Origin: Nitrospirota bacterium
GTDB taxonomy: Bacteria; Nitrospirota; UBA9217
Length of the DNA stretch: 64,000 nt
Assembly: GCA_963737155.1 (NCBI GenBank)
Contig: CAVTRN010000001.1
Coordinates: 1,440,001-1,504,000 of the forward strand
Direction of reading: 5' to 3'
How positions within the stretch are numbered: position 1 is the stretch's first letter; each line of letters begins with the position of its first letter. The translations under genes were made by a program, and so were the position numbers. The notes beneath the pieces are model-generated. The model searched no databases. It was not told where the DNA came from and was given only the letters and a program-made list of their open reading frames with translations. This document shows, one piece after another, positions 29,307-42,046 of this stretch.

Positions 29307-29657
29307 TTAATATGTGCCGTCACCCTGAATCGATCGCACGAACTGCTCCGCAAGCCGTCCGTTCCTGCCCCCAGCAGCAAGGGCCCACTGGATCGCGAGT
29401 CGCTCAAGCTTGTTCCCGTCCATGCGGACGCCATACTTCGTAGCGTAGGATGTGACTATCTCCAGGTAGGTATCCTCGGAAAAGTGGTAAAAGCCAAAGC
29501 GCAGGCCGAAACGATCCACAAGCGAGATCTTCTCCTCCACCGTATCGGAAGGCCGAATCTCGTCGCTGTCATTGTCCGAGAACCTCGTGGTGATCAGATG
29601 TTTCCGATTCGATGTTGCATAGAACAGTACGTTTGCCGGGATTTGTTCCAGACCGCC
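29307..29657 (-). pseudogene. DUF815-family AAA+ ATPase, 3' half only (interrupted by Tn7-like end)
   Basis: GGLE..PANVLFYATSNRKHL..EEKISLVDRFGLRFGFY..A.QW....GGRNGR.AEQF; homology stops at the TGT end. Confidence 0.85.
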
Positions 29658-29883
29658 TGTCACAAACAATAATAAAAGAGACTGATAGTAATTTTATATT
29701 TTAATTAACCTATTGTAAATATGAATTAAAATAATTAACCATATCCTTGCCAATACAAAAATAATACATTATATAATTAAACTATAACATAATATAACGA
29801 TACAACATTTAATATTAACAATATATATTGATAACAAGTTGCAGTAAGTTGACAATAATATTATTTTCATTTATAATTAAATC

Positions 29884-30558
29884 ATGCCAGCACGCAAAAT
29901 ACGCAGAAATTACAGGTCGGTAACTGGAATTTTCCCCAGCATATTCAAAAATGGTCGGGGTGTCGCTTACGAGTCCCCTTTGGAGAGGGATTTTTTTACT
30001 CTATTGGAGTTCGATGATAATGTGAAAACATATGAGGAGCAACCAGTGAAGATACTTCATAAGAAGGGTCGAAAAACGATACCCTATTACCCCGATTGTC
30101 TCATTACTTACATACCCGAAATAAAGCGAAAGGATCTTCTCCTGGATGTCAAGGATACGGACACTATTGAGAAAACTAAAGATGATTACGAATATAGGCG
30201 TGATGTCGTCGCGCGTTACGCAGAAGAACACGGACAAGATTATGCAGTTTTTACAGAGAAGGAAATCCGGACAGTGTACCTTAAAAACGTGAAGTTTCTC
30301 TATCGCTTCGCTCGTGCTCCACAGAATCTCAATGAAGTGCAAATGATGATCAAGGGCAGCGGGGTTGCTGGTGCGCTTCTTGCCGTAAACGAACTTCTTG
30401 CAAAGTTGACACCGGACAAGAAGCGACAAATGGAAATACTACCTTCAATTTGGCATCTTGTGTGTATCAAAAAGATATCTACGAACTTAGACGATAAAGA
30501 ACTAAATATGAAATCCATCCTGAATGTAACCAATGATACGCGACAACGGCAGAGATGA
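29884..30558 (+). CDS. tnsA: TnsA endonuclease
   Basis: RSVTG..YESPLERDF..LEFD..EEQP..YYPD..DVK..TEKEIR..YLKNVKFL. Confidence 0.92.
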   Translation: MPARKIRRNYRSVTGIFPSIFKNGRGVAYESPLERDFFTLLEFDDNVKTYEEQPVKILHKKGRKTIPYYPDCLITYIPEIKRKDLLLDVKDTDTIEKTKDDYEYRRDVVARYAEEHGQDYAVFTEKEIRTVYLKNVKFLYRFARAPQNLNEVQMMIKGSGVAGALLAVNELLAKLTPDKKRQMEILPSIWHLVCIKKISTNLDDKELNMKSILNVTNDTRQRQR

Positions 30559-30756
30559 CGAAAAAAAAGACAGTACATGGTAAGCGCTTCTCGGTGTGAC
30601 TGTTTGGTACTAATCGGCAGTAACAGATTAGCATATCCCGTTTTGACTGTGTTCGCCGATCCGTGGAGCAAATCGTCAGGATAGATATGGCTTACATCGA
30701 AAGGCGCTAAATGCTGCGGTTGATACTCAGTAGATAGTCGTTCCTGAGGTTATAAT

Positions 30757-32715
30757 ATGGGCTTAGTATCCTTCACACCTGGAAGTATAGTTTATTCGGG
30801 AAAAGACCGTTATGAGGTAGTGGCAACATCTGATCTCAAGAACGTTTTGGTCAAAAAATCGGACACAGGCGAGAATAAAATCCTACCCGTTGCTTCCTTG
30901 AGATCTACTCCCGAAGAGGATAGCCCAGCAGACAGCGGAATCAGTACTGTTGGGCACATCGATGACAAACTATGGGCATTAGCTCTTTGGCGTCAAGAAG
31001 TGATTAAACCTCTTTTGAAGAATGGACGCACCAAAAGTGAGGTTATCGCACGTGCGAAACATTTTGAAGTCAGTCCGGTAACTGTCTACCGATGGATTGC
31101 CGATTTTGAGACTACAGGCACTACCAGCGCCTTGGTTCCGAAATACGATCAGCGTGGAGGCAGCGGAAAAACCAGATTTAACAAAAATGGGGAAGAAATT
31201 ATCAGTGCAACCTTGACAAAACTTTACCTTAACAAACAACAGTTGAAACCCACGAAAGTATACGATGAAATAAAAAGACTTTTTTCTCTCGCCAAGCTTA
31301 CCCCACCTCACATGAATACGATGATTAACAGAATCAAAACGTTTTCTAACAGGGAAGTGGCGGCGGCCCGTAAAGGCAAAAAATGGAGTCAAGACCACTT
31401 TGAGGAAAAAACAGGGCATTATCCAGGAGGCAAGTATCCGCTTGATGTCATACAGATCGATCACACCATGCTTGATGTCCATATTGTTGATGAGAAGCAC
31501 CGCGAGGTATTAGACCGTCCATGGCTCACGGTCGCAATCGATGTATTCTCGAGGGTGATCGTTGGTTTCTATATATACCCGGACCATCCAAGCTATTTCT
31601 CTGTGTCCCAATGCCTCGCCAATGCGTTTCTACCAAAAGACAAGTTTTTAAGATCAGTCAATGTCGAGGGCAACTGGGATGTCTGGGGCCGACCTTTTTC
31701 GATCTTCGCCGATAACGCCTGGGAGTTTCAGGGGGTCAATCTTAAGAGAGTATGCGCTGAATACGATACAATTCTTGAATGGCGACCAGTGAAGCACCCG
31801 GAATACGGCGGACATATTGAGCGCCTTTGCGGTACGCTTAACAATGAGATACATAGCCTGCCAGGAACGACATTTTCTAACATCCAAGCTAAAGGACAGG
31901 CGTATAACTCAGAGAAAGAAGCTGTAATGACAATCGCCGAACTTGAACATTGGTTCACTGATCTCGTAGTAAACACTTATCACAAAAGACCTCATTCAGG
32001 AATCAACGATATGTCACCCATGGCGAAATACGAGATGGGGATTCGCGGGGACGATACTACGCCTGGAACCGGACTCCCGACTGCCTTTGAGGACGAAGAT
32101 CGACTGAGGATCAGCCTTTACCCGCATTATATGAGGTCTGTAAGACGGGATGGTATCGTAATAGAAAATGTGCACTACTATCATGACGTACTCAGGAAGT
32201 GGATTAATGCATCCAAGGGGAGTAGAAAGAGACTATTTGAAGTGAACTATAATCCCCGCGACATGAGCGTAGTTTACTTCTACGATCCGGAGCTTAAAAA
32301 GTATTTTCCAATACCTTACAGGAATATGACTCATAAACCGTTGACACTCTGGGATATCACTGCCGAGAAGAAGTATTTACACGAGCAGGGCATGAAAACC
32401 ATTGACGAGGCCAGCATCTTCAGATCATATGAACGCAGGATGCACATAGTCGAAAATTCGACGGAAAAAACGAAACAGGCGCGTAAAGAGTCTCGCAAAC
32501 GGACCGAAGTGCGGGAATTCCACAAACGTAAGCATAAGCAGGAAACGCAGCCGGCAGAGCATTCCAAAAACGGAAATAATGTATCGAATGTTGCCGACGC
32601 TGGACAAGACAAGAAGTCCATATTTACCGACCTGTTAAAAAATGCAAGGCCCTTTGAGGGAATAAAAGTGATACATAGGAAATCTGAAAGGGGTTCGGAT
32701 GGTGACGAAGGATGA
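30757..32715 (+). CDS. tnsB: TnsB/TniA DDE transposase
   Basis: QIDHT, RPWLTVAIDVFSR, DNAWEF, YGGHIERL..PGTTFSN, YNPRDMS. Confidence 0.93.
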   Translation: MGLVSFTPGSIVYSGKDRYEVVATSDLKNVLVKKSDTGENKILPVASLRSTPEEDSPADSGISTVGHIDDKLWALALWRQEVIKPLLKNGRTKSEVIARAKHFEVSPVTVYRWIADFETTGTTSALVPKYDQRGGSGKTRFNKNGEEIISATLTKLYLNKQQLKPTKVYDEIKRLFSLAKLTPPHMNTMINRIKTFSNREVAAARKGKKWSQDHFEEKTGHYPGGKYPLDVIQIDHTMLDVHIVDEKHREVLDRPWLTVAIDVFSRVIVGFYIYPDHPSYFSVSQCLANAFLPKDKFLRSVNVEGNWDVWGRPFSIFADNAWEFQGVNLKRVCAEYDTILEWRPVKHPEYGGHIERLCGTLNNEIHSLPGTTFSNIQAKGQAYNSEKEAVMTIAELEHWFTDLVVNTYHKRPHSGINDMSPMAKYEMGIRGDDTTPGTGLPTAFEDEDRLRISLYPHYMRSVRRDGIVIENVHYYHDVLRKWINASKGSRKRLFEVNYNPRDMSVVYFYDPELKKYFPIPYRNMTHKPLTLWDITAEKKYLHEQGMKTIDEASIFRSYERRMHIVENSTEKTKQARKESRKRTEVREFHKRKHKQETQPAEHSKNGNNVSNVADAGQDKKSIFTDLLKNARPFEGIKVIHRKSERGSDGDEG

Positions 32716-33607
32716 TGTACATGCGGAAAGCCTCATTCCAGATGCACGGGCAGTGCTCGACTTGGACGATAAGGCCAGAGTGGATTATATCCGGCAGGAG
32801 AAGTGGATCCCGTATACTCGGGCAAACGAGATATTAGCCAGCCTTGAGGAACTTCTGATCACACCGAAGAAGTCACGGATGCCAAGTATGCTCATTGTTG
32901 GCGACTCAAACAATGGCAAATCCAGTATTGCACAAGAGTTCCTCCGTCGCCACCCACCTACTAATGGCATTGAGTCCGAAGCGTATCCCGTTATTTGGAT
33001 AGAAGCCCCGAATACCCCGGACGAGGGTAGGTTGTATAACAATATTCTGAAGCATCTTCTAGTGCCGTTCAAGTACAAGGACATGCCCTCGAAAAAAGAG
33101 CATGAGGTTGATTATTATTTCCAGAAACTTGGCACCAAAATGCTCATCATAGACGATATCCACAACATCTTGAGCGGACCCATAACGAAACAGCTAATAT
33201 TTATGAATGCTTTAAGAACTCTAAATAACAGTTTGTATATTCCTATCGTACTCTTGGGAATAGAAACAGCCTTACAAGCTGTTGCTACAGACAAACAGAC
33301 AAGCAGTAGGTTTCCACCTGTTGCGCTGCCTAAGTGGAAGCCTAATCAAGAGTATGTGTCGCTATTGCTTAGTATTGAAATGATTCTGCCTTTGAGAAAA
33401 GCATCCAATCTGGCTTCTGAAGAACTGGCTCCTTTAATCCTAGATCTTTCCGAAGGGTATATCGGGGATATTGTCGAATTGATGAATACCGCCGCTATCT
33501 ATGCCGTCCAGGCCGGGATTGAGCGGATCACCTCCAAAGTGATTTCTGCATGCGGTTACATCAAACCTTCACAACGAAGCCTCAAGGTAGGGCTGGAGAT
33601 AGTATGA
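32699..33607 (+). CDS. tnsC: TnsC/TniB AAA+ ATPase
   Basis: WIPY.RA, RMPSMLIVGDSNNGKS Walker A, MLIIDDIHN Walker B, SRF..LPKW, SEGYIG. Confidence 0.92.
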   Translation: MVTKDDVHAESLIPDARAVLDLDDKARVDYIRQEKWIPYTRANEILASLEELLITPKKSRMPSMLIVGDSNNGKSSIAQEFLRRHPPTNGIESEAYPVIWIEAPNTPDEGRLYNNILKHLLVPFKYKDMPSKKEHEVDYYFQKLGTKMLIIDDIHNILSGPITKQLIFMNALRTLNNSLYIPIVLLGIETALQAVATDKQTSSRFPPVALPKWKPNQEYVSLLLSIEMILPLRKASNLASEELAPLILDLSEGYIGDIVELMNTAAIYAVQAGIERITSKVISACGYIKPSQRSLKVGLEIV

Positions 33608-34796
33608 TGGGGTAGCAAACTTATATAGCGCCCAACTAAAGAAACGCCAGTTTGCGGTCAGGCTTAGACCAGAGAATAGTGAACTTCTCTCATCTTGGTT
33701 GGCAAGGACCATTTATGGCCATATGGTCGATTCCGCGACCTTTTTTAGCCTCTACTTTCCAGAGCGACAAAATATTATCTGGAAACGGGATATAGACCTA
33801 ACAGCCGATGATGAATTTTTGGAGATATTGTCTTATAAGAGCGGTCTGCGTTTCGGAGACCTCCTAGATCTTACGTTGAGATCATATGAGTCATATCTTG
33901 CGGAAAAGATATCCACTGTAGCAGCAAACCATTTTATTCAACCTTTGGGGAATTTTGGTCGAATGACAACAATGTACGGGCTGAGATTCTGTCCTATATG
34001 TCTGAAGGAAGATAAAATTCCTTTTTTTAGAAAAACATGGAGACTTTCTTTTTCAACGGCCTGTATTAAACACGGATGTTTCTTGCTGGACAGATGCCAG
34101 AAGTGCAATTACTCGATTTCCATTTTTAGGCGATTTTATGATCATGGCTTTCCTCATTGCTATAAATGCGGGGCGGAATATAAAAACGCAACGCCGGAAT
34201 TAATCACCGCCGACTCGCATGGGCTCCAACCTATCAAACAATTATATAACATACTGGATTCTGGCGTGTTTAGATTTTCCAACCGTTATACTTACTCCTT
34301 TTTATTCTTTGAGATGTTGTACAAGGTTATCAAACTCGTATGTTTCTGGAAAAAGGATAAGGCGTTCTTTGGTCAGCAAGATGATGTGTTATACAGAAAA
34401 CTTATGTTCAACGAGCCCATTCACAGATATCTGACAGATTACCCATTAAAGGTCCAACACCTTCTTTTTTCCAACGCAATGGATCTTTTTAACGGCCTGC
34501 CGGATAAACTTGTCGGGTTTTTAACTGCCAATAATATGAGAATGTCCGATCTAGTACATGACCTCAAATATGTTCCTTTTTGGTTTGCCGAAATTGCGGA
34601 ACAGTTCAATCTCGATCAGAGAGCTGTGACTATAGACGAGGTTCGTAATGCTATAACATACTTAAAAAAGAGGAATAAACTCGTTTATCGGCAATCTGTC
34701 GCGGATCTCATGGGGGTTTTCAATTTTAATCCCAAAAAGCGACGGGATATTAGTAAGCTGTTTAATAAAGTCGGGCGTTTTTATTTAGCTGCTTGA
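33604..34796 (+). CDS. tniQ: TniQ/TnsD-family target selector (start region possibly frameshifted)
   Basis: RPENSELLSSWLAR, FCPICL..RKTWRLSF.TACIKH..LLDRCQKC..CYKCG; frame open from 33603 but ATGs at 33604/33607 are out of frame; track start is TTG 33699. Confidence 0.88.
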
Positions 34797-35050: not shown

Positions 35051-35273
35051 GTAAGTACTATATTGTGTCCAAGGTACCAGGTGCGCTACACTTTAGTTCC
35101 GTTAGTTCCTTATTTCCAATAAATTAAAAGTGTGATATATTTCTACTGTATCTTCAAACCCCGTCTTACATTATCTGAGTCGATCGAATTCCATTAACAC
35201 CAGACTTCAGAATTATCGGGAGCGGTTCAATTCCTATAACAATGTTATGTGGCAACATAAATCGGAGTCAGAT

Positions 35274-36325: not shown

Positions 36326-37462
36326 ATGTCGTCGATAGAATGCGCTTTCTGTGGCACACCTATTACCGAACAAAACGACTCCAAAGAGCATTTGATCGCA
36401 AATGCAATAGGGGGGAGAAAAAAAATCAGTGGCTTCCTTTGTAAAGTTTGCAATAGTATATCAGGGAAAGATTGGGATGCTGAGCTTGCTAAACAACTAA
36501 ACCCCCTCAGTTTATTTTTTGGGATTATTAGAGAAAGAGGTGAAGTCCCATCACAGATAGTGGAAACAACCAAAGGCGATCGACTTCAATATAATCCTGA
36601 CGGCAGAATGAGCCTGCCAAAGCCCGAGTACAAGGAAGAGTCGCTCGGCGCAGGCGTACAAATAAGCATAAAAGCGAGATCACTCAAAGAGGCGCGGCAA
36701 ATGCTTGCTGGAATTAGAAGAAAGTATCCGAAAATCGAGACAAATGGATTACTTCAGAATGCCAAACGCGAATCTTTCTATTCGAAAGATATGCTTAAAT
36801 TCAGTCACTCATTTGGAGGGCATAAGGTTGGACGAGCACTGGTTAAATCAGCTTTTGGGCTTGCTGTTGCTGCGGGTGTTAATCCCAAATCATGCGAGAA
36901 TGCCATTAACTATTTGACTAAAGAAAATTCAGAGGCATGTTTTGGATATTTTTACGAGCGGGACCTGATAAAAAATCGGCCGGACGGTGTTGTATTTCAC
37001 TGTGTTGCTGTGAATGGTAATCTAAAAACACGCCAACTTCTCGGATATGTGGAGTATTACGGCGTTCGAAGAATGATAATTTCTCTTTCTGATTCGTATG
37101 ATGGGCAAGAGTTCTCTAACGTTTATGCGATTGATCCCATTTCGGGTAACGAGATTGCTCTTGATGTTGACCTTTCACTTACACCAGAGGAAGTGAAAGC
37201 CGCATATCGATACGAGAAGATTCCGCCGGGGTCGGTTGAATCTGCCTTTAAAAAAGTTATTCTAATCGGTTTAGAAAAGGCTTTTGAAAAAGAGAAAAAC
37301 AGGGCAATAACGGAAGCGGTCGAATACGCTATTAAGAATTGCGGAGCGGCAGAAGGCGAGCTTTTAACAGAGGACCATACGAAAAAATTAATAGGCCTTA
37401 TAATGGAAAAGCTAGAGCCTTACTTAATGCATCACACCAAAGATCATTCGGAACGGAGATAA
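36326..37462 (+). CDS. HNH endonuclease family protein
   Basis: CAFC..DSKEHLIANAIGG..LCKVCNS..G..D. Confidence 0.85.
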   Translation: MSSIECAFCGTPITEQNDSKEHLIANAIGGRKKISGFLCKVCNSISGKDWDAELAKQLNPLSLFFGIIRERGEVPSQIVETTKGDRLQYNPDGRMSLPKPEYKEESLGAGVQISIKARSLKEARQMLAGIRRKYPKIETNGLLQNAKRESFYSKDMLKFSHSFGGHKVGRALVKSAFGLAVAAGVNPKSCENAINYLTKENSEACFGYFYERDLIKNRPDGVVFHCVAVNGNLKTRQLLGYVEYYGVRRMIISLSDSYDGQEFSNVYAIDPISGNEIALDVDLSLTPEEVKAAYRYEKIPPGSVESAFKKVILIGLEKAFEKEKNRAITEAVEYAIKNCGAAEGELLTEDHTKKLIGLIMEKLEPYLMHHTKDHSERR

Positions 37463-38342
37463 AATCTTATGTGGAAATCAAACCCGACCTTCGGAAACTT
37501 AGTCCTCCCTACGACGACCTCCGTAAACATCGTCGGACCAAGTTTGTTCAAATCCTTCATGTCAGTTCAGCAATGCGCACACTTAAGGGTTTCATAGCCC
37601 AGCGCCTCACCATAATGCTCCCATTTGCCGCCATCTTGGGGCACACTGGGAAATCCTGAACCGTAGCCATAATGAGACATCCTGAAATAGAAAAGGCTGG
37701 CACGGCATTTCCGCCAGGTAGCCTTTAGGTTCGTAACTTAAACCGATTTCAACACATCATGCATTATCCGAATTATTCATGCACTCGCTTTATTTGGTCG
37801 ATAGACCCGACAACCTTTAACGATGCCGCTTCTACCGCCTTATACATCTGCTCAGCTTTTTCTCGGTTCCCGGTGCGGTAAGCTGCAATTGCTTCCTTCG
37901 ACAGCCGGGTTGTATTTCTTTATGAGGTTCTACCACTGTCTTGTAGCTTAGCATCTGCCCGCAAATTATCTGGTCTTCTTTGTCGTACCACTTCCCGAAC
38001 CTGCATTGGCGATTGTGGAAGTGGCTTCTATGTTCTTTGTAACCTCTTCGGTTGCCGCCGACTGTTCTTTCTATAACGCACAATATATGATTATGGACTT
38101 CATTTCCATCACGTAGGCAAAATGCTTTATGATAAAGTTGATTATTTCCAATAAACGAGAAATGTGATATGCTTCTAACACACTTTCAGATTGCATATTA
38201 CAAAAACGGGGGTATAGCACGTCCCTCTGAATAACAACATCTAGACCTTGTGTGTGAGTTCCAGACTTATATTATAACTAGTCGTTAAACCCAAAACTAA
38301 GAAACCTGTATTTTAACTCAGCATTAGTATGAGGAATATTGA

Positions 38343-39233
38343 ATGGCACGACATAGAACAAGTCCACTTGAGGATTTCTTCTTAATAGTGATCAGAAAAA
38401 TCCCCTGGTGGGTTTTTGTTTTTTTGGCGCTGATATCATTTTCGGTGTTGCATTTTTTTGCCACTAGACCTTTGGTAAACATAGGCCCAGTTTACCTGCT
38501 AAAAAGAACTATTCAAATGTTGGCTATGTTCGGACAATACCTTATCCTTATTTTTATTGGTCTTGTAGCTCTATTGTCAGCCATGCAGAAAAAGCTGTAC
38601 GGCAGAACGGAGTCACGCTTCGATGTTGCTGCTTTGAATGAAATGAGCTGGGAGGATTTCGAGAGGCTAGTCGGCGAATACTATGAACGTGTTGGTTTCC
38701 AAGTTACACGGACAGGCAGCGATGGCCCCGATGGTGGTATAGATTTAGTGCTACGTAAAGATGGCGAAACACATCTAGTACAGTGCAAACAGTGGAAGGC
38801 ATATAAGGTCGGGGTGCAACCGGTCCGAGAGTTCTACGGAGTAATGGCCGCGCGTGGTGTAGCTGGTGGATACTTTGTCACCTCCGGCGCATACACCGAA
38901 GCGGCTCAGGAATTTGCACAGGGCCTCAATGTTGAATTGATTGACGGGGGCAAGCTCGTGGATATGATTGACTTGGCGCGAAAGAAGCCTACAGCGTTAG
39001 CTATTAAAAACGAATCAGAACAATTGGCCATTACACCAGTCTGTCCAAAATGTGGCGCAGAGATGAATAAACGGGTCGGGCGTCTAGGAAACACTGCTGG
39101 TAAGGAATTTTGGGGGTGCAGCACCTTTCCAGAATGTAACGGCACTCGACAGCTGGAGTATGCCGCCAGCGATGGGGTTACACTTACAGTGTCATCGAAA
39201 GCGGCTACTTCTGTGCCAGAAAAAAAGAGTTGA
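38343..39233 (+). CDS. Mrr-family restriction endonuclease with N-terminal TMs and topoisomerase Zn-ribbon
   Basis: SWEDFERLVGE..DGGIDL..VQCKQW..VREFYG..VTSG..ELIDG; CPKCG..FWGCSTFPEC. Confidence 0.9.
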   Translation: MARHRTSPLEDFFLIVIRKIPWWVFVFLALISFSVLHFFATRPLVNIGPVYLLKRTIQMLAMFGQYLILIFIGLVALLSAMQKKLYGRTESRFDVAALNEMSWEDFERLVGEYYERVGFQVTRTGSDGPDGGIDLVLRKDGETHLVQCKQWKAYKVGVQPVREFYGVMAARGVAGGYFVTSGAYTEAAQEFAQGLNVELIDGGKLVDMIDLARKKPTALAIKNESEQLAITPVCPKCGAEMNKRVGRLGNTAGKEFWGCSTFPECNGTRQLEYAASDGVTLTVSSKAATSVPEKKS

Positions 39234-39921
39234 CCCGATTGTGGTGCGGAGCTGTTTTGGTTCAAGAGCGGTCAATATATTTACGGCTGTATAACTGTAA
39301 GAAAGGATGGCCAGTGGAGCTGGCGTGGTATCGTGGTATGATGAGTCGTGTTTGTGACCATTAGAAATGTATGACTTTGCTTCACAGGTTCACCGCAAAA
39401 CCGTTAAGGAATGACTGCTTCCGTCCATTGCCCATATTCGTTTTTCACAGGGTTAAAAAAGACGGAACCTTAGGAGTGACAATTTACGTCAGTTTTTTGC
39501 CATAAATTGGCAATTCTTATGTTTTTTTATTATACTTCCAGTTAATTTCGTTAAAAAAACAATGTATTATTAAAAACCTCATGTTAAGCATATTAATTGC
39601 ATGTTTATGCGTAGAAAATATATAAATTAGATTATAATTTATTAATATATAGCTCTTAATAAAAATTGTGTTGATTTTTATGATACAATAAGTTAAAGTC
39701 AACTCTAATTTTAGCCGAAAAGTTATCTAGTAGATTGTTGAACAGCCATCCGTACGTTTATCCTTCAACCGAATTAGGCTGAAGAAAGGGATAAGTTGAA
39801 GAGGGGTATTATTAGTGATCGGTAAACTTGCCGAACTATTCAAAATATTCTTCAACAAGGTGAGTAGAACATATCTGGGAGCTAGTTATAACAAAATGTG
39901 ATAAAGGGGAGGTAAAATATC

Positions 39922-39951
39922 ATGAGAAAAGGTGACCCGACAGAAGAGTAA
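39922..39951 (+). CDS. Putative 9-aa micropeptide MRKGDPTEE
   Basis: Strong SD (aaaggggaggt) 8 nt upstream of ATG; followed by terminator hairpin. Confidence 0.3.
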   Translation: MRKGDPTEE

Positions 39952-39975
39952 AAGAGAATCTCAGCAATCATTAGT

Positions 39976-40017
39976 AATAAATAAAAAGAGGGGCAATGGC
40001 CCCTCTTTTTATTTATT
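39976..40017. terminator. Bidirectional intrinsic terminator
   Basis: 19-bp perfect stem aataaataaaaagaggggc-aatg-gcccctctttttatttatt. Confidence 0.85.
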
Positions 40018-40033
40018 GGTTATGATATAGAAA

Positions 40034-41635
40034 TTACTTGGTATTCATGATCTCTTGGACATGGTTCAATTGCATGTTCATACTTCTAAAATTAAATGAT
40101 GTGTAATTAACTTTATCGCCCATCGTTTTACAGTATTCTTTAGCCTTGGCCAAATCTTTTGCATCTTTACTCCTTTTGTAGGTATGGTAGTAGAACATAG
40201 CAACGGAGTCAAACATATTACTAGTGGCAGTTTCTTTTTCTAGCAGTGTTTCTAATTCCATGAAGTAGCTTCTGGCAATGTTATAATCCGAATCTGAATT
40301 GGTTAGCACATATTTTTCTAAAGCATACCAGCAAACATTGTTGATCAAATTCTCATAGTCTTGATCTGGAAATGTGCCAGTATTTTTATCAACAATTTTC
40401 CGAGCTTCCATTATTTTTTCTAGTGCAATATCTATATATTCAGAGCCGAGCATCCAATACGTATATGCAAGTCTAGCTTTCACCTTGAATAAATTTTTGT
40501 AGTCACATGCTGGTTGATTATCTAGAATTTTTTCGCTTTCATCGAAAGCAGCTAAAGCGTTTTCAATATGATTCGGGAGATCACTTTGAATAAAATATAT
40601 CTCTCCTATTCGGAAAAATACAACATAGTGGTCAGGATGTTTTTCTTTAACTTTCTCATAAGTTTTTAGCGCTTCGTTGTACTTCCCTTCATAAAATAAT
40701 AAGAAAGCATCCTCCATATCATTCCAATATTGAAGGTTAAGATCACTATCGAAGTCCTGTTTTTTTAACTGGCTAAAAAGATTGGAATAAAGTTCTCGTG
40801 CCTTCTTTAGCCATGGAACTTTTGGATTTTTTAAATTATAGGTTTTAATAAAAGCCCAGTATATTTCGAACTTATCCTTAAAAGGTCCATCTTCAATAAA
40901 TATTTTCGGAAATAACTCTTCTTCATAAGTAAAAAACCCACGTGGTCCAAGCTTTTCATTTGAATATTTATCCCCGCATTGCTCTCTCTCGTTTATCTCC
41001 CTTAAATGAGTCATAAGAACATCCATTGTCTGGAGGTCGCGAGCAAGCAAAGAAAAACTTTTCTTTATATGTGGATGAATACTACCCCTTTTATAAGAAA
41101 GTGAATGCTCTAATTCACCCCATACATCCTGGAGTAGAGTTCTTAATTGAATTTCAGCAGTAAACGACTTATCCCCAACTACTCGTTCGATAACATAATG
41201 TATCGATTTATAACCTGACTTTTTTTCATCGATTAAAGGTATTGCTCGATCGTAATATTTTTTGGTCATTCCGATAATTAGGTCAATATTATCATTATCT
41301 TCCCAATTATATATTTTAAGTTCTCTCAATGAGAAACCGTTTGCCAATAGTGCCCCGAGAAAAAAGTCATGAGTAAGAAAAATATCTTTTTCAAAGAGGC
41401 ACAATAATCTAAAGCCCGCATAGTCCGTTATATTATCGAGTACAGTAATCTTTTTTCGTTTTGTTTTTAAGAATACGCTTTCAGGAGATTTAACACGATA
41501 TTTCGATGTGTAAACCGGAAGGTTTTGTTCTTGTCGTCCCTGTTTTACTATACCGTCTAGTTCACTTAAGATGCTATTGAAACCATGTATATACTTTTTT
41601 ACATATGCAGTAATTTCAGAAAAAGTAATTGACAC
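40034..41635 (-). CDS. RelA/SpoT (alarmone synthetase) domain fused to C-terminal TPR repeats
   Basis: RVKSPES..K, ITDYAGFRL, SGYKSIHY, EIQLRTLLQDVWGELEH..YK; TPR pattern YYEGKYNEAL-like (FYEGKYNEALKTYEKV..FRIGEIYF). Confidence 0.85.
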   Translation of the reverse strand: MSITFSEITAYVKKYIHGFNSILSELDGIVKQGRQEQNLPVYTSKYRVKSPESVFLKTKRKKITVLDNITDYAGFRLLCLFEKDIFLTHDFFLGALLANGFSLRELKIYNWEDNDNIDLIIGMTKKYYDRAIPLIDEKKSGYKSIHYVIERVVGDKSFTAEIQLRTLLQDVWGELEHSLSYKRGSIHPHIKKSFSLLARDLQTMDVLMTHLREINEREQCGDKYSNEKLGPRGFFTYEEELFPKIFIEDGPFKDKFEIYWAFIKTYNLKNPKVPWLKKARELYSNLFSQLKKQDFDSDLNLQYWNDMEDAFLLFYEGKYNEALKTYEKVKEKHPDHYVVFFRIGEIYFIQSDLPNHIENALAAFDESEKILDNQPACDYKNLFKVKARLAYTYWMLGSEYIDIALEKIMEARKIVDKNTGTFPDQDYENLINNVCWYALEKYVLTNSDSDYNIARSYFMELETLLEKETATSNMFDSVAMFYYHTYKRSKDAKDLAKAKEYCKTMGDKVNYTSFNFRSMNMQLNHVQEIMNTK

Positions 41636-42046
41636 CGCTTGTCACCTCCTGATTTTAATAAATCGTGAGTAAGAATATTAGTAGAACGACTCCTTTTCAA
41701 TAAGTTAATTAGCATAGTTTAATTGAACTGATTACCTGCGCCCGTCGATATAAGTCAAAGTCGTGATTCGCATAATCCCTCAAAACGACGCTAGGTAGCT
41801 GACAGCATAGCCAGAGTGTCAGGTGGAGGGGGCCGTTAAGCCCGTTGCGCCGCACCGTGCCTGTCACGTGCGGCATACAGAACCAGCCTGATGAGCGCGT
41901 GATGTAGTGAAGAACCGACATTAAAACCGCAGGAAACTATGGTCATGGTCGGGATGATGGTAGCTTAGAAAAACATCGATGAGAAAATTAAAGTTTCTCG
42001 TCAACGAGATACCTTTTCTTTTTTGACAAGTGCCATTTAAACGGAT

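Follow-up and report, generated by a model that had tools for sequence, protein, structure and literature searches.

An eight-codon micro-ORF recurs beside a TPR-fused small alarmone synthetase: a candidate peptide ligand in a mobile two-gene module

The DNA considered here, which we call the window, is a stretch of 64,000 nucleotides from a Nitrospirota bacterium (GenBank assembly GCA_963737155.1, contig CAVTRN010000001.1, positions 1,440,001 to 1,504,000 of the forward strand). Within it lies a pair of convergent genes of very unequal size. The larger encodes a protein of 533 residues in which a synthetase domain of the RelA/SpoT superfamily is followed by an array of tetratricopeptide repeats (TPR); such fusions are known as SAS-TPR, SAS standing for small alarmone synthetase. 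The smaller is an open reading frame (ORF) of only nine codons, preceded by a purine-rich Shine-Dalgarno sequence, and an intrinsic terminator lies between the two (Table 1). Here we describe this pair, follow the micro-ORF through the loci that contain homologues of the larger gene, and suggest what its peptide could do.

Table 1. Coordinates of the gene pair and of neighbouring features in the window
Feature	Position	Strand	Basis or remark
Micro-ORF, 9 codons and TAA (stop 39950-39952), ending Asp-Pro-Thr-Glu-Glu	39923..39952	+	ATG read; equivalents beside 44/53 homologous genes
Purine-rich Shine-Dalgarno of the micro-ORF	39904..39914	+	8-nt gap to the ATG
Bidirectional intrinsic terminator, common to both convergent genes	39976..40017	.	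arms 39976-39994 and 39999-40017, 4-nt loop, flanked by an A-run and a T-run
SAS-TPR gene, 533 residues and stop	40034..41635	-	ORF, Pfam, homologues, AlphaFold2 model
Shine-Dalgarno AGGAGG of the SAS-TPR gene	41645..41650	-	9 nt 5' of the GTG start
Synthetase domain (RelQ/RelP-like), residues 1-187	41075..41635	-	invariant catalytic motifs; PDB and Foldseek matches
Long helix 188-226 and ordered, conserved interdomain linker 227-250	40886..41074	-	model secondary structure, pLDDT, alignment
TPR-like superhelix, residues 251-533, 14 helices	40037..40885	-	TPR-only model, pLDDT 94.5
TnsA-like endonuclease	29884-30558	+	domain match
Mu/TnsB-type transposase	30757-32715	+	domain match
TniB/TnsC ATPase	32699-33607	+	domain match
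TniQ	33699-34796	+	domain match
378-residue protein, N-terminal HNH_5 domain	36326-37462	+	Pfam
296-residue protein, Mrr_cat and topoisomerase-type zinc ribbon	38343-39233	+	Pfam; PADLOC PDC-S02, type IV methyl-directed restriction, ZorD nuclease domain
270-residue ORF, 52% GC, directly upstream of the SAS-TPR gene	42261-43073	-	sub-threshold adenylate/guanylate cyclase match, E 1.9e-4, 21.5 bits vs 21.9

The GTG start of the SAS-TPR gene fits the N-termini of the aligned homologues. In the encoded protein Pfam reports RelA_SpoT (PF04607, residues 47-184, 63.7 bits against a cut-off of 27) together with a weak TPR_6 match, and it reports no HD hydrolase, TGS or ACT/RRM domain; the full-length AlphaFold2 model (mean predicted local distance difference test score, pLDDT, 90.2) consists of one alpha/beta domain and helical repeats. 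To judge from its sequence, the protein is a synthetase-only member of the superfamily, that is, a small alarmone synthetase, and its predicted product is an alarmone. The catalytic residues R47, K49, S53, K57, D71, G74, R76, Y142, S144, H146, E161, Q163, R165 and T166 are invariant among 31 aligned homologues and also align to RelQ. In the same alignment conservation extends across the linker, where P231 is invariant and Y237, E238 and P243 are nearly so, and over the entire C-terminal half. The model runs from the alpha/beta domain (1-187) by way of helix 188-226 and the ordered linker into 14 paired helices (251-530), an array of roughly 300 residues and some seven repeats. For residues 1-225 the best PDB sequence match is of the RelQ/RelP (YjbM/YwaC) kind (2be3, E 3.9e-15), and the fold of the N-terminal domain is also best matched by RelQ/RelP (Foldseek TMt 0.73-0.79; 5dec 0.79), with all the synthetase motifs conserved; none of the toxSAS structures (FaRel, FaRel2, PhRel, PhRel2, CapRel) is among the PDB sequence matches at E <= 0.01, whereas RelQ and RelP are present. 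In both sequence and model, the catalytic domain looks most like that of the housekeeping RelQ/RelP enzymes and not like the solved toxSAS. An earlier note on this DNA, made from the letters alone, had described an AT-rich, stand-alone synthetase-TPR fusion with intact motifs and no hydrolase, TGS or ACT domain, facing a nine-codon ORF with a strong Shine-Dalgarno across a perfect 19-bp bidirectional terminator. This description stands; the toxSAS enzymes that the note also brought in are, as far as their solved structures go, less like the catalytic domain than RelQ/RelP. RelQ and RelP are stand-alone domains of about 200 residues, regulated allosterically by pppGpp or RNA; they differ from the window protein in having neither a TPR nor a peptide partner and in their vertical inheritance in Firmicutes.

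The protein belongs to a sizeable family. More than 200 full-length homologues were found (214 at E <= 0.001 among 8000 candidates scored), and PF04607 is present in all 120 of those listed, most of which align over 92-100% of the query with an identity of 35-60%. Forms of 530-600 residues predominate among the relatives. A profile of the TPR domain, run against 1.84 billion proteins, retrieved 171 cluster representatives at E <= 1e-30, 210 at 1e-10 and 968 at 1e-3; in the best 150 of the 171, with 27 of odd length checked, the domain always stands behind a synthetase domain or in an N-truncated fragment, and the only other effector fusion among these 150 is one TIR/SEFIR protein. The latter is a homologue of 748 residues (P0109) whose TIR/SEFIR domain (residues 12-143) precedes the synthetase-TPR body; no other added domain of effector type was seen among the members. 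The genome of the window also encodes, on another contig, one long RelA/SpoT homologue of 722 residues.

The micro-ORF of the window would attract little attention within its own genome. The pattern with which it ends, Asp-Pro-Thr-(Asp/Glu)-x-stop, occurs three times in the six frames of the 4.84-Mb genome, which is about the base-composition expectation; among the three occurrences only that of the micro-ORF is provided with a start codon, and no host protein ending in the motif, a possible target of mimicry, was found in the whole genome in six frames. What makes the motif significant is solely that it is met again and again next to homologues of the larger gene. The terminator hairpin, whose 19-bp arms are perfectly complementary, occupies the space between the two stop codons; it was called on each strand by the terminator scan, and its fold (z = -4.55) was equalled by none of 200 shuffles. 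Two matches to the Rfam family sraA fell on this hairpin, but at 31 and 27 bits they stayed below the gathering score of 56, and we rejected them as chance; no Rfam family exceeded its threshold there.

The recurrence was followed through 22 loci from species-representative genomes and 80 from metagenomes. We kept the 52 loci that contained the stop codon and whose match extended at least to query residue 529, which with the window makes 53; near-duplicates remain among them (44 different proteins in the 48 rows of the tree described below). Dropped were L003, L017 and L022, which meet contig ends; L057, whose locus lacks the stop; and, as partial or distant, L029, L038, L046-L048, L051, L062, L063, L066 and L068-L104. 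A listing made free of any pattern, of convergent short ORFs with a Shine-Dalgarno within 350 nt downstream, contained the same motif in 3 of the 19 genome loci and in the window. When the strict motif was sought in six frames from -50 to +500 nt relative to the stop codon of the gene, it was found in 22 of the 53 loci. Four further occurrences in the approximately 355 kb of locus DNA are all tiny ORFs adjoining the gene; three of these share its strand and lie upstream, and the fourth is convergent at 537 nt. None of the matches in that DNA is unrelated to the gene. At the six-frame rate of 3 per 4.84 Mb some 0.02 occurrences would be expected across all 53 flanks, against the 22-26 observed. 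A looser nucleotide pattern (a start, 1-4 codons, GAY CCN, 2-3 codons, a stop) matched 42 times in 68.8 kb of flanks (37/53 loci) as opposed to 3 times in the other 313 kb.

Seven more loci have clade-specific variants, picked post hoc from short ORFs behind a Shine-Dalgarno: (Ser/Thr)-Pro-Thr-Asp-Glu-Glu-Glu ending ORFs of 12-14 codons (three loci), Asp-Glu-Thr-Asp where others have Asp-Pro-Thr-Asp (one locus) and a 7-codon Met-x-Asp-Ile-x-x-Leu (three loci of Magnetococcales). Hence a micro-ORF of 7-14 codons stands beside the gene in 44 of the 53 loci, from at least five phyla, and its common form has eight codons, Met-x-x-Asp-Pro-Thr-(Asp/Glu)-x-stop. The named hosts are Pseudomonadota, Thermodesulfobacteriota, Chlorobiota and Nitrospirota, mostly diderm, and one metagenome-assembled genome of Patescibacteria; the pair is also present in the cultured Chlorobaculum thiosulfatiphilum DSM 249 (L007) and Solidesulfovibrio aerotolerans DSM 16695 (L016). 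In a Magnetococcus locus (L021) two identical tandem copies of a 7-codon micro-ORF lie 114 and 270 nt downstream in the same Shine-Dalgarno context. Bins labelled Chlorobiaceae and 'beta proteobacterium' contain near-identical copies of both the SAS-TPR gene and the micro-ORF, and a Roizmanbacteria bin has a close relative (L004, L005, L010 in all); the likeness reflects either very recent transfer or mis-binned contigs.

The micro-ORFs bear the marks of coding sequence. The strict class comprises 23 distinct ORFs. Wobble is free in their Asp, Pro, Thr and Asp/Glu codons (Pro: A12 T6 C4 G1; Thr: A12 C6 G4 T1), and an ATG stands exactly three codons upstream in 19-21 of them, though it lay outside the search pattern. 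These ORFs have a purine-rich segment at -16 to -22, TAA is their usual stop, and the flanking bases are unconserved. Across all 44 micro-ORFs, 42 start with ATG and 30 have eight codons. A Shine-Dalgarno matching at least four of five positions precedes 38 of the 44, compared with 28% of 7087 control ATGs, and a perfect five of five precedes 19, compared with 3.3% of the controls. Their placement is less constant: 28 are convergent downstream, 9 downstream on the same strand, 5 upstream on the same strand and 2 divergent upstream. No conserved protein-coding partner is common to more than three loci (BLAST clustering of ORFs of at least 70 residues within 4 kb, 53 loci), so that the micro-ORF is the only constant partner of the gene. 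Since the peptide is kept while position, strand and flanking RNA vary, a trans-acting peptide is favoured over an antisense or leader mechanism, and the sequences argue for a coding gene that is presumably translated and acts in trans.

The peptide and the TPR array appear to have changed together. On a quick maximum-likelihood tree of 48 rows, from which five N-truncated rows were left out, the peptide variants follow the receptor clades. When the 24 rows with the common motif were compared with the 24 others, Y393 and W394 proved invariant in all 24 of the former. Y393 is replaced by Phe in both lineages in which the peptide has Phe for Thr, and by Asn in the clade with Pro-Thr-Asp-Glu-Glu-Glu; W394 gives way only where Pro is missing from the peptide, as it is in two lineages: to Lys in the one with Glu for Pro, and to Glu or Asp in the Magnetococcales. 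Where Asn stands in for the acidic residue (Asp/Glu) of the peptide, N473 is His, and E345, N432 and S518 are conserved with the common motif and changed in other variant clades. Among the class-specific columns that fall in helices, 14 of 17 are on the alternate ('A') helices. In what we take to be the TPR consensus (an aromatic residue at position 4, Leu at 7, Gly at 8, Tyr at 11), W394 is position 5 and E345 position 9, which together with the helix alternation would place both on the ligand-facing concave side.

The gene is a newcomer to its genome. Its GC content is 33-34%, 16 points below the 49.5% of the genome, a mark of recent acquisition, and at E <= 1e-30 it is found in none of 60 related genomes (14 from its genus, 22 from its family and 24 from its phylum). 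By composition and distribution the SAS-TPR gene is horizontally acquired, and the module is accessory and mobile.

Synthetase-TPR fusions as such are not new. SAS-TPR, or DsRel, is a named family of small alarmone synthetases with one characterised member, Tde-SAS (TDE1711) of Treponema denticola, a protein of 410 residues with four TPR motifs (available portions of PMC10434055). According to the same portions, its TPR acts as a brake, with a kcat about 3-fold lower and a Km(GDP) about 6-fold higher; it makes mainly ppGpp and is non-toxic in E. coli; and its TPR ligand is unidentified, the authors having speculated on unknown protein partners. In both Tde-SAS and the window protein an N-terminal synthetase-only domain and a C-terminal TPR are joined in one chain, and the window protein has the Gln-Leu-Arg-Thr-x-Leu-Gln-Asp-x-Trp-x-Glu that is also present in the dsRel rows (spirochaetes, Desulfuromonas) of the accessible supplement of PMC7229694. 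The two differ in length and repeats, 533 residues with 14 helices and about seven repeats as opposed to 410 and four, and the relatives of Tde-SAS size among our loci are only 23-24% identical and without such a micro-ORF. The window protein is, by these comparisons, a new member of SAS-TPR/DsRel or a sister to it, with a longer TPR array. A partner peptide is not mentioned in the available text on Tde-SAS (PMC10434055), and we found no literature that links an alarmone synthetase to a micropeptide, in a search to which subscription-only papers and bioRxiv supplements were external. Hence the fusion is already known, whereas its conserved micropeptide partner appears undescribed. The interpretation given in the earlier note is thus partly supported: the fusion, part of a module that it held to be possibly undescribed, had a name, but the short ORF with its Shine-Dalgarno, which it thought worth seeking beside homologues, is conserved in 44 of 53 loci (28 of the 44 convergent), and its micropeptide has become, through this conservation and the co-variation with the TPR, the leading candidate for the TPR ligand.

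We consider it quite probable that the peptide is a ligand of the TPR array through which alarmone synthesis is gated, and that the two genes form a mobile module. In the mechanism that we favour, the RelQ/RelP-like synthetase would employ its seven-repeat TPR array as a regulatory sensor, and the micro-gene, transcribed separately, usually convergent and with a bidirectional terminator in common, would yield an unprocessed cytoplasmic peptide of about eight residues, Met-x-x-Asp-Pro-Thr-(Asp/Glu)-x. The peptide would lie in the concave TPR groove, touching Y393, W394 and the conserved Asn and Ser residues of the following repeats, and would set the activity of the synthetase. As a short-lived 'all is well' ligand it might hold the brake on; were its supply to stop, by phage shut-off of host transcription or translation, by starvation or by loss of the module, the peptide would be degraded and the TPR vacated, alarmone would be made and growth arrested, a minimal antitoxin-like or guard logic. 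We lean towards such an 'off' ligand because a self-encoded, strongly translated and presumably fast-degraded peptide reports only the cell's expression capacity, because a guard or antitoxin-like circuit is of benefit to a mobile module of sporadic occurrence, and because the TIR-fused member points to conflict biology. With this direction of control included, the scheme is our best overall explanation, and a tentative one. Its boldest version, in which the eight-residue peptide is a labile antitoxin or guard ligand whose loss on expression shut-off fires an alarmone burst, so that the pairs make up a new, minimal toxin-antitoxin or abortive-infection class carried into several phyla by horizontal transfer, is possible and on the whole doubtful.

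A number of points weigh against this interpretation or one of its parts. The motif patterns were set after the first matches had been seen, and the seven second-tier variants were chosen in retrospect. The micro-ORF was not detected in 9 of the 53 loci, two of which have short flanks (L033, L058); the remaining seven constitute one clade (L008, L025, L039, L043, L044/45, L061) that has kept Y393 and W394, while N473 and S518 are changed in it. Short ORFs sharing 4-mers, sought within 1.5 kb in this clade and in L033 and L058, gave chance-like overlaps only; the peptide of the clade may have diverged past the search patterns or been lost. In ten distant, shorter or truncated relatives, the forms of about 400 residues included (L062, L063, L068, L072, L094, L095, L046, L029, L038 and L017, three of them cut by contig ends), no Asp-Pro-type micro-ORF occurs anywhere in the locus; the pairing may be specific to the long subfamily of about 530-600 residues. 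The co-variation rests on few lineages and is confounded by shared descent, and the concave-side placement of W394 and E345 depends on helix alternation and the general TPR consensus. In the fold search, whose outcome is compatible with a peptide ligand, the TPR-only model has its neighbours at Z 13-15.6, among them the peptide-bound Rap, NprR and PlcR (Z 14-15) and also AimR (RRNPP receptors overall, Z 13-15.3); these scores are tied with those of LGN, MalT, OGT and subunits of the APC, at the helical-repeat baseline. The modelled C-terminal fold is that of a TPR and does not point to a single family, and a kinship with RRNPP receptors drawn from the fold search was set aside, since the scores tie with those of generic TPR proteins.

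A role in defence is only suggested. The neighbours at other loci, of which 101 ORFs were scanned of 171 listed, include mobile or defence-type genes: a TIR-TPR STAND protein with an HsdR fragment, HipA, IS21, integrases, DUF499/DUF3780, a CAP12/Pycsar TIR, a type I specificity subunit and transposases. On the other side, many homologous loci are situated amid housekeeping genes (porin, S9, RecO, Rnf, glycogen phosphorylase, sigma-54); none of 52 pattern matches in viral contigs was confirmed as a relative; and among plasmids 37 records match the synthetase domain only, none covering 80% or more of the query. The PADLOC model PDC-S33 matches residues 138-172 only, against positions 136-174 of its 349 (E 3.6e-9), which is the catalytic motif common to both and does not amount to membership of that system.

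The direction of control is where the scheme is most exposed. Tde-SAS purified from E. coli, in which its cognate peptide would be lacking, was already braked by its TPR and non-toxic, according to the accessible parts of PMC10434055; therefore an activating ligand fits at least as well. Such an intracellular peptide would free the TPR brake, and the alarmone level would track peptide production; the peptide would then be a gauge of expression capacity or a condition-specific inducer. The linkage and the co-variation fit this equally well, the ligand-free TPR of Tde-SAS represses and its removal raises activity (same portions of PMC10434055), and the transcription unit of its own that the micro-ORF has in most loci (28/44 convergent) permits independent regulation. 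Yet the Shine-Dalgarno sequences are constitutively strong (five of five in 19/44) and no regulator gene is conserved, so that no conditionality is obvious, and a self-activating growth brake offers no evident benefit to a mobile and sporadic module. We regard an activating ligand as rather unlikely.

A peptide beside a TPR receptor also recalls bacterial quorum sensing. The peptide could be released, accumulate and be re-imported, reporting cell density through the TPR to an alarmone output, in the manner of the RRNPP systems (Rap, NprR, PlcR, PrgX, AimR) or of a leaderless relative. The layout of a TPR-type receptor adjoining a tiny peptide gene is that of RRNPP, the variants diverge with their receptors, and the TPR model aligns with Rap, NprR, PlcR and AimR at Z 13-15. 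There is also a precedent for a peptide made without a leader, as the RopB-type TPR receptors of Firmicutes use unprocessed leaderless peptide signals (accessible text of PMC10518010). However, our peptides are short, charged and acidic (Arg/Lys, Asp, Thr, Asp/Glu) and without an export signal, 7-9 residues leaving no room for a signal sequence; no transporter or peptidase gene is conserved nearby; the hosts are mostly diderm and not Firmicutes; the output is an alarmone synthetase in place of a helix-turn-helix domain or a Rap-type phosphatase; and the structural match is non-specific. A released signal is accordingly quite improbable.

The convergent layout with a common terminator, found in most loci, might instead indicate an RNA or a cis element, that is, a convergent RNA, small or antisense, or a leader in which ribosome occupancy controls termination and thereby the 3' end of the synthetase mRNA, similar to a type I toxin-antitoxin system. 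A hairpin with z < -2 lies in the spacer between the stops in 14 of 23 distinct spacers of convergent loci, and in two near-identical loci the stops of gene and micro-ORF are 5 nt apart, so that the transcripts must overlap. Against this, conservation is confined to codon positions one and two, with free wobble and unconserved flanks; the start codon, Shine-Dalgarno and stop are retained; 16 of the 44 micro-ORFs lie upstream of the gene or share its strand, which excludes antisense pairing with its 3' end; and Rfam gave nothing at threshold, only the sub-threshold matches on the hairpin. We think it very improbable that the conserved element is an RNA.

A similarly slight chance attaches to the most prosaic reading, an ordinary housekeeping synthetase of the DsRel type with an irrelevant micro-ORF, hitch-hiking or present by accident. 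The SAS-TPR family is known and was non-toxic in the single case tested (available portions of PMC10434055), many loci lie amid housekeeping genes, and one clade is without a detectable micro-ORF. But about 0.02 chance matches to the strict motif were expected where 22-26 were observed, the ORF has stayed with the gene over at least five phyla and four arrangements while all other neighbours changed, and it co-varies with residues of the TPR.

Least probable of all is that the peptide is a substrate or precursor held by the TPR while the transferase modifies it, for example at the Thr hydroxyl. The model would be microcin C, whose seven-residue precursor illustrates that enzymes can act on gene products of this size. 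The main peptide class does keep the Thr, but it has become Phe, Ile, Glu or Ser in several clades, export, immunity and maturation genes are not conserved, the nucleotide pyrophosphokinase residues are all RelQ-like, and we know of no peptide-modifying activity in the RelA/SpoT synthetase fold.

A peptide that gates the TPR from within the cell, our preferred explanation, also invites comparison with the toxSAS. These too are accessory synthetases with a linked small partner or a fused C-terminal domain, mobile and sometimes in defence contexts; they differ in that their antitoxins are proteins encoded in an operon with the toxin (accessible parts of PMC7229694), whereas the partner here is a peptide of about eight residues that is usually convergent, and no conserved adjacent gene for a protein antitoxin forms an operon with the gene at the SAS-TPR loci. 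The neighbourhood screen by which the toxSAS were defined worked on annotated proteins, as far as the available text of PMC7229694 describes it, and would presumably miss an ORF of eight codons. By analogy, the pair could work like an RRNPP or leaderless pair with an alarmone output, or else as a toxin-antitoxin system whose antitoxin is a micropeptide, although some defining features of each family are absent from it. If our reading is true, this would be the first enzyme of the RelA/SpoT family under the control of a dedicated micropeptide, a new input to alarmone signalling beside ribosomes, nucleotides and protein antitoxins; the principle of a peptide and its TPR receptor would reach beyond the quorum sensing of Firmicutes; and neighbourhood screens of annotated proteins would be overlooking partners of eight codons. 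For the unidentified ligand of the SAS-TPR brake, the micro-gene provides a concrete candidate that can be synthesised.

The surroundings of the pair in the window contain several further mobile features. From their domain matches, the four genes tnsA-tnsB-tniB-tniQ (29884-34796) constitute Tn7-like transposition genes, and the SAS-TPR gene lies 5.2 kb beyond tniQ; in between are two stand-alone nuclease genes, of the HNH_5 and Mrr types. Directly 5' of tnsA is an AT-rich stretch with repeated A/C-rich words (29650-29880). Repeat and pattern searches gave no convincing terminal inverted repeats for the Tn7-like element and no matching end downstream; the SAS-TPR gene is at most a possible cargo of this element. 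A 67-nt direct repeat (70% identity; 35104-35170 and 38136-38202, both ending TTACA), with one copy after tniQ and the other before the Mrr gene, may represent transposon-end remnants of stacked insertions. The ORF directly upstream of the SAS-TPR gene has no PADLOC or NCBIfam match.

Farther along, a 93-nt intergenic direct repeat (82% identity) occurs at 43855-43947 and 51104-51196, 7.2 kb apart. Two adjacent direct repeats, 86 and 103 nt long with 88-89% identity (48192-48396 and 48934-49134, 740 nt apart), reach into the beginning of a response-regulator/HD-GYP gene (48887-49960) and suggest that its receiver domain was partly duplicated in tandem. An insertion sequence (54184-56175) encodes a DDE_Tnp_1 transposase (54272-56116) between 20-nt inverted repeats of 95% complementarity (54184-54203 and 56156-56175), and behind it lies a fused type I methylase-specificity gene (57030-59456).

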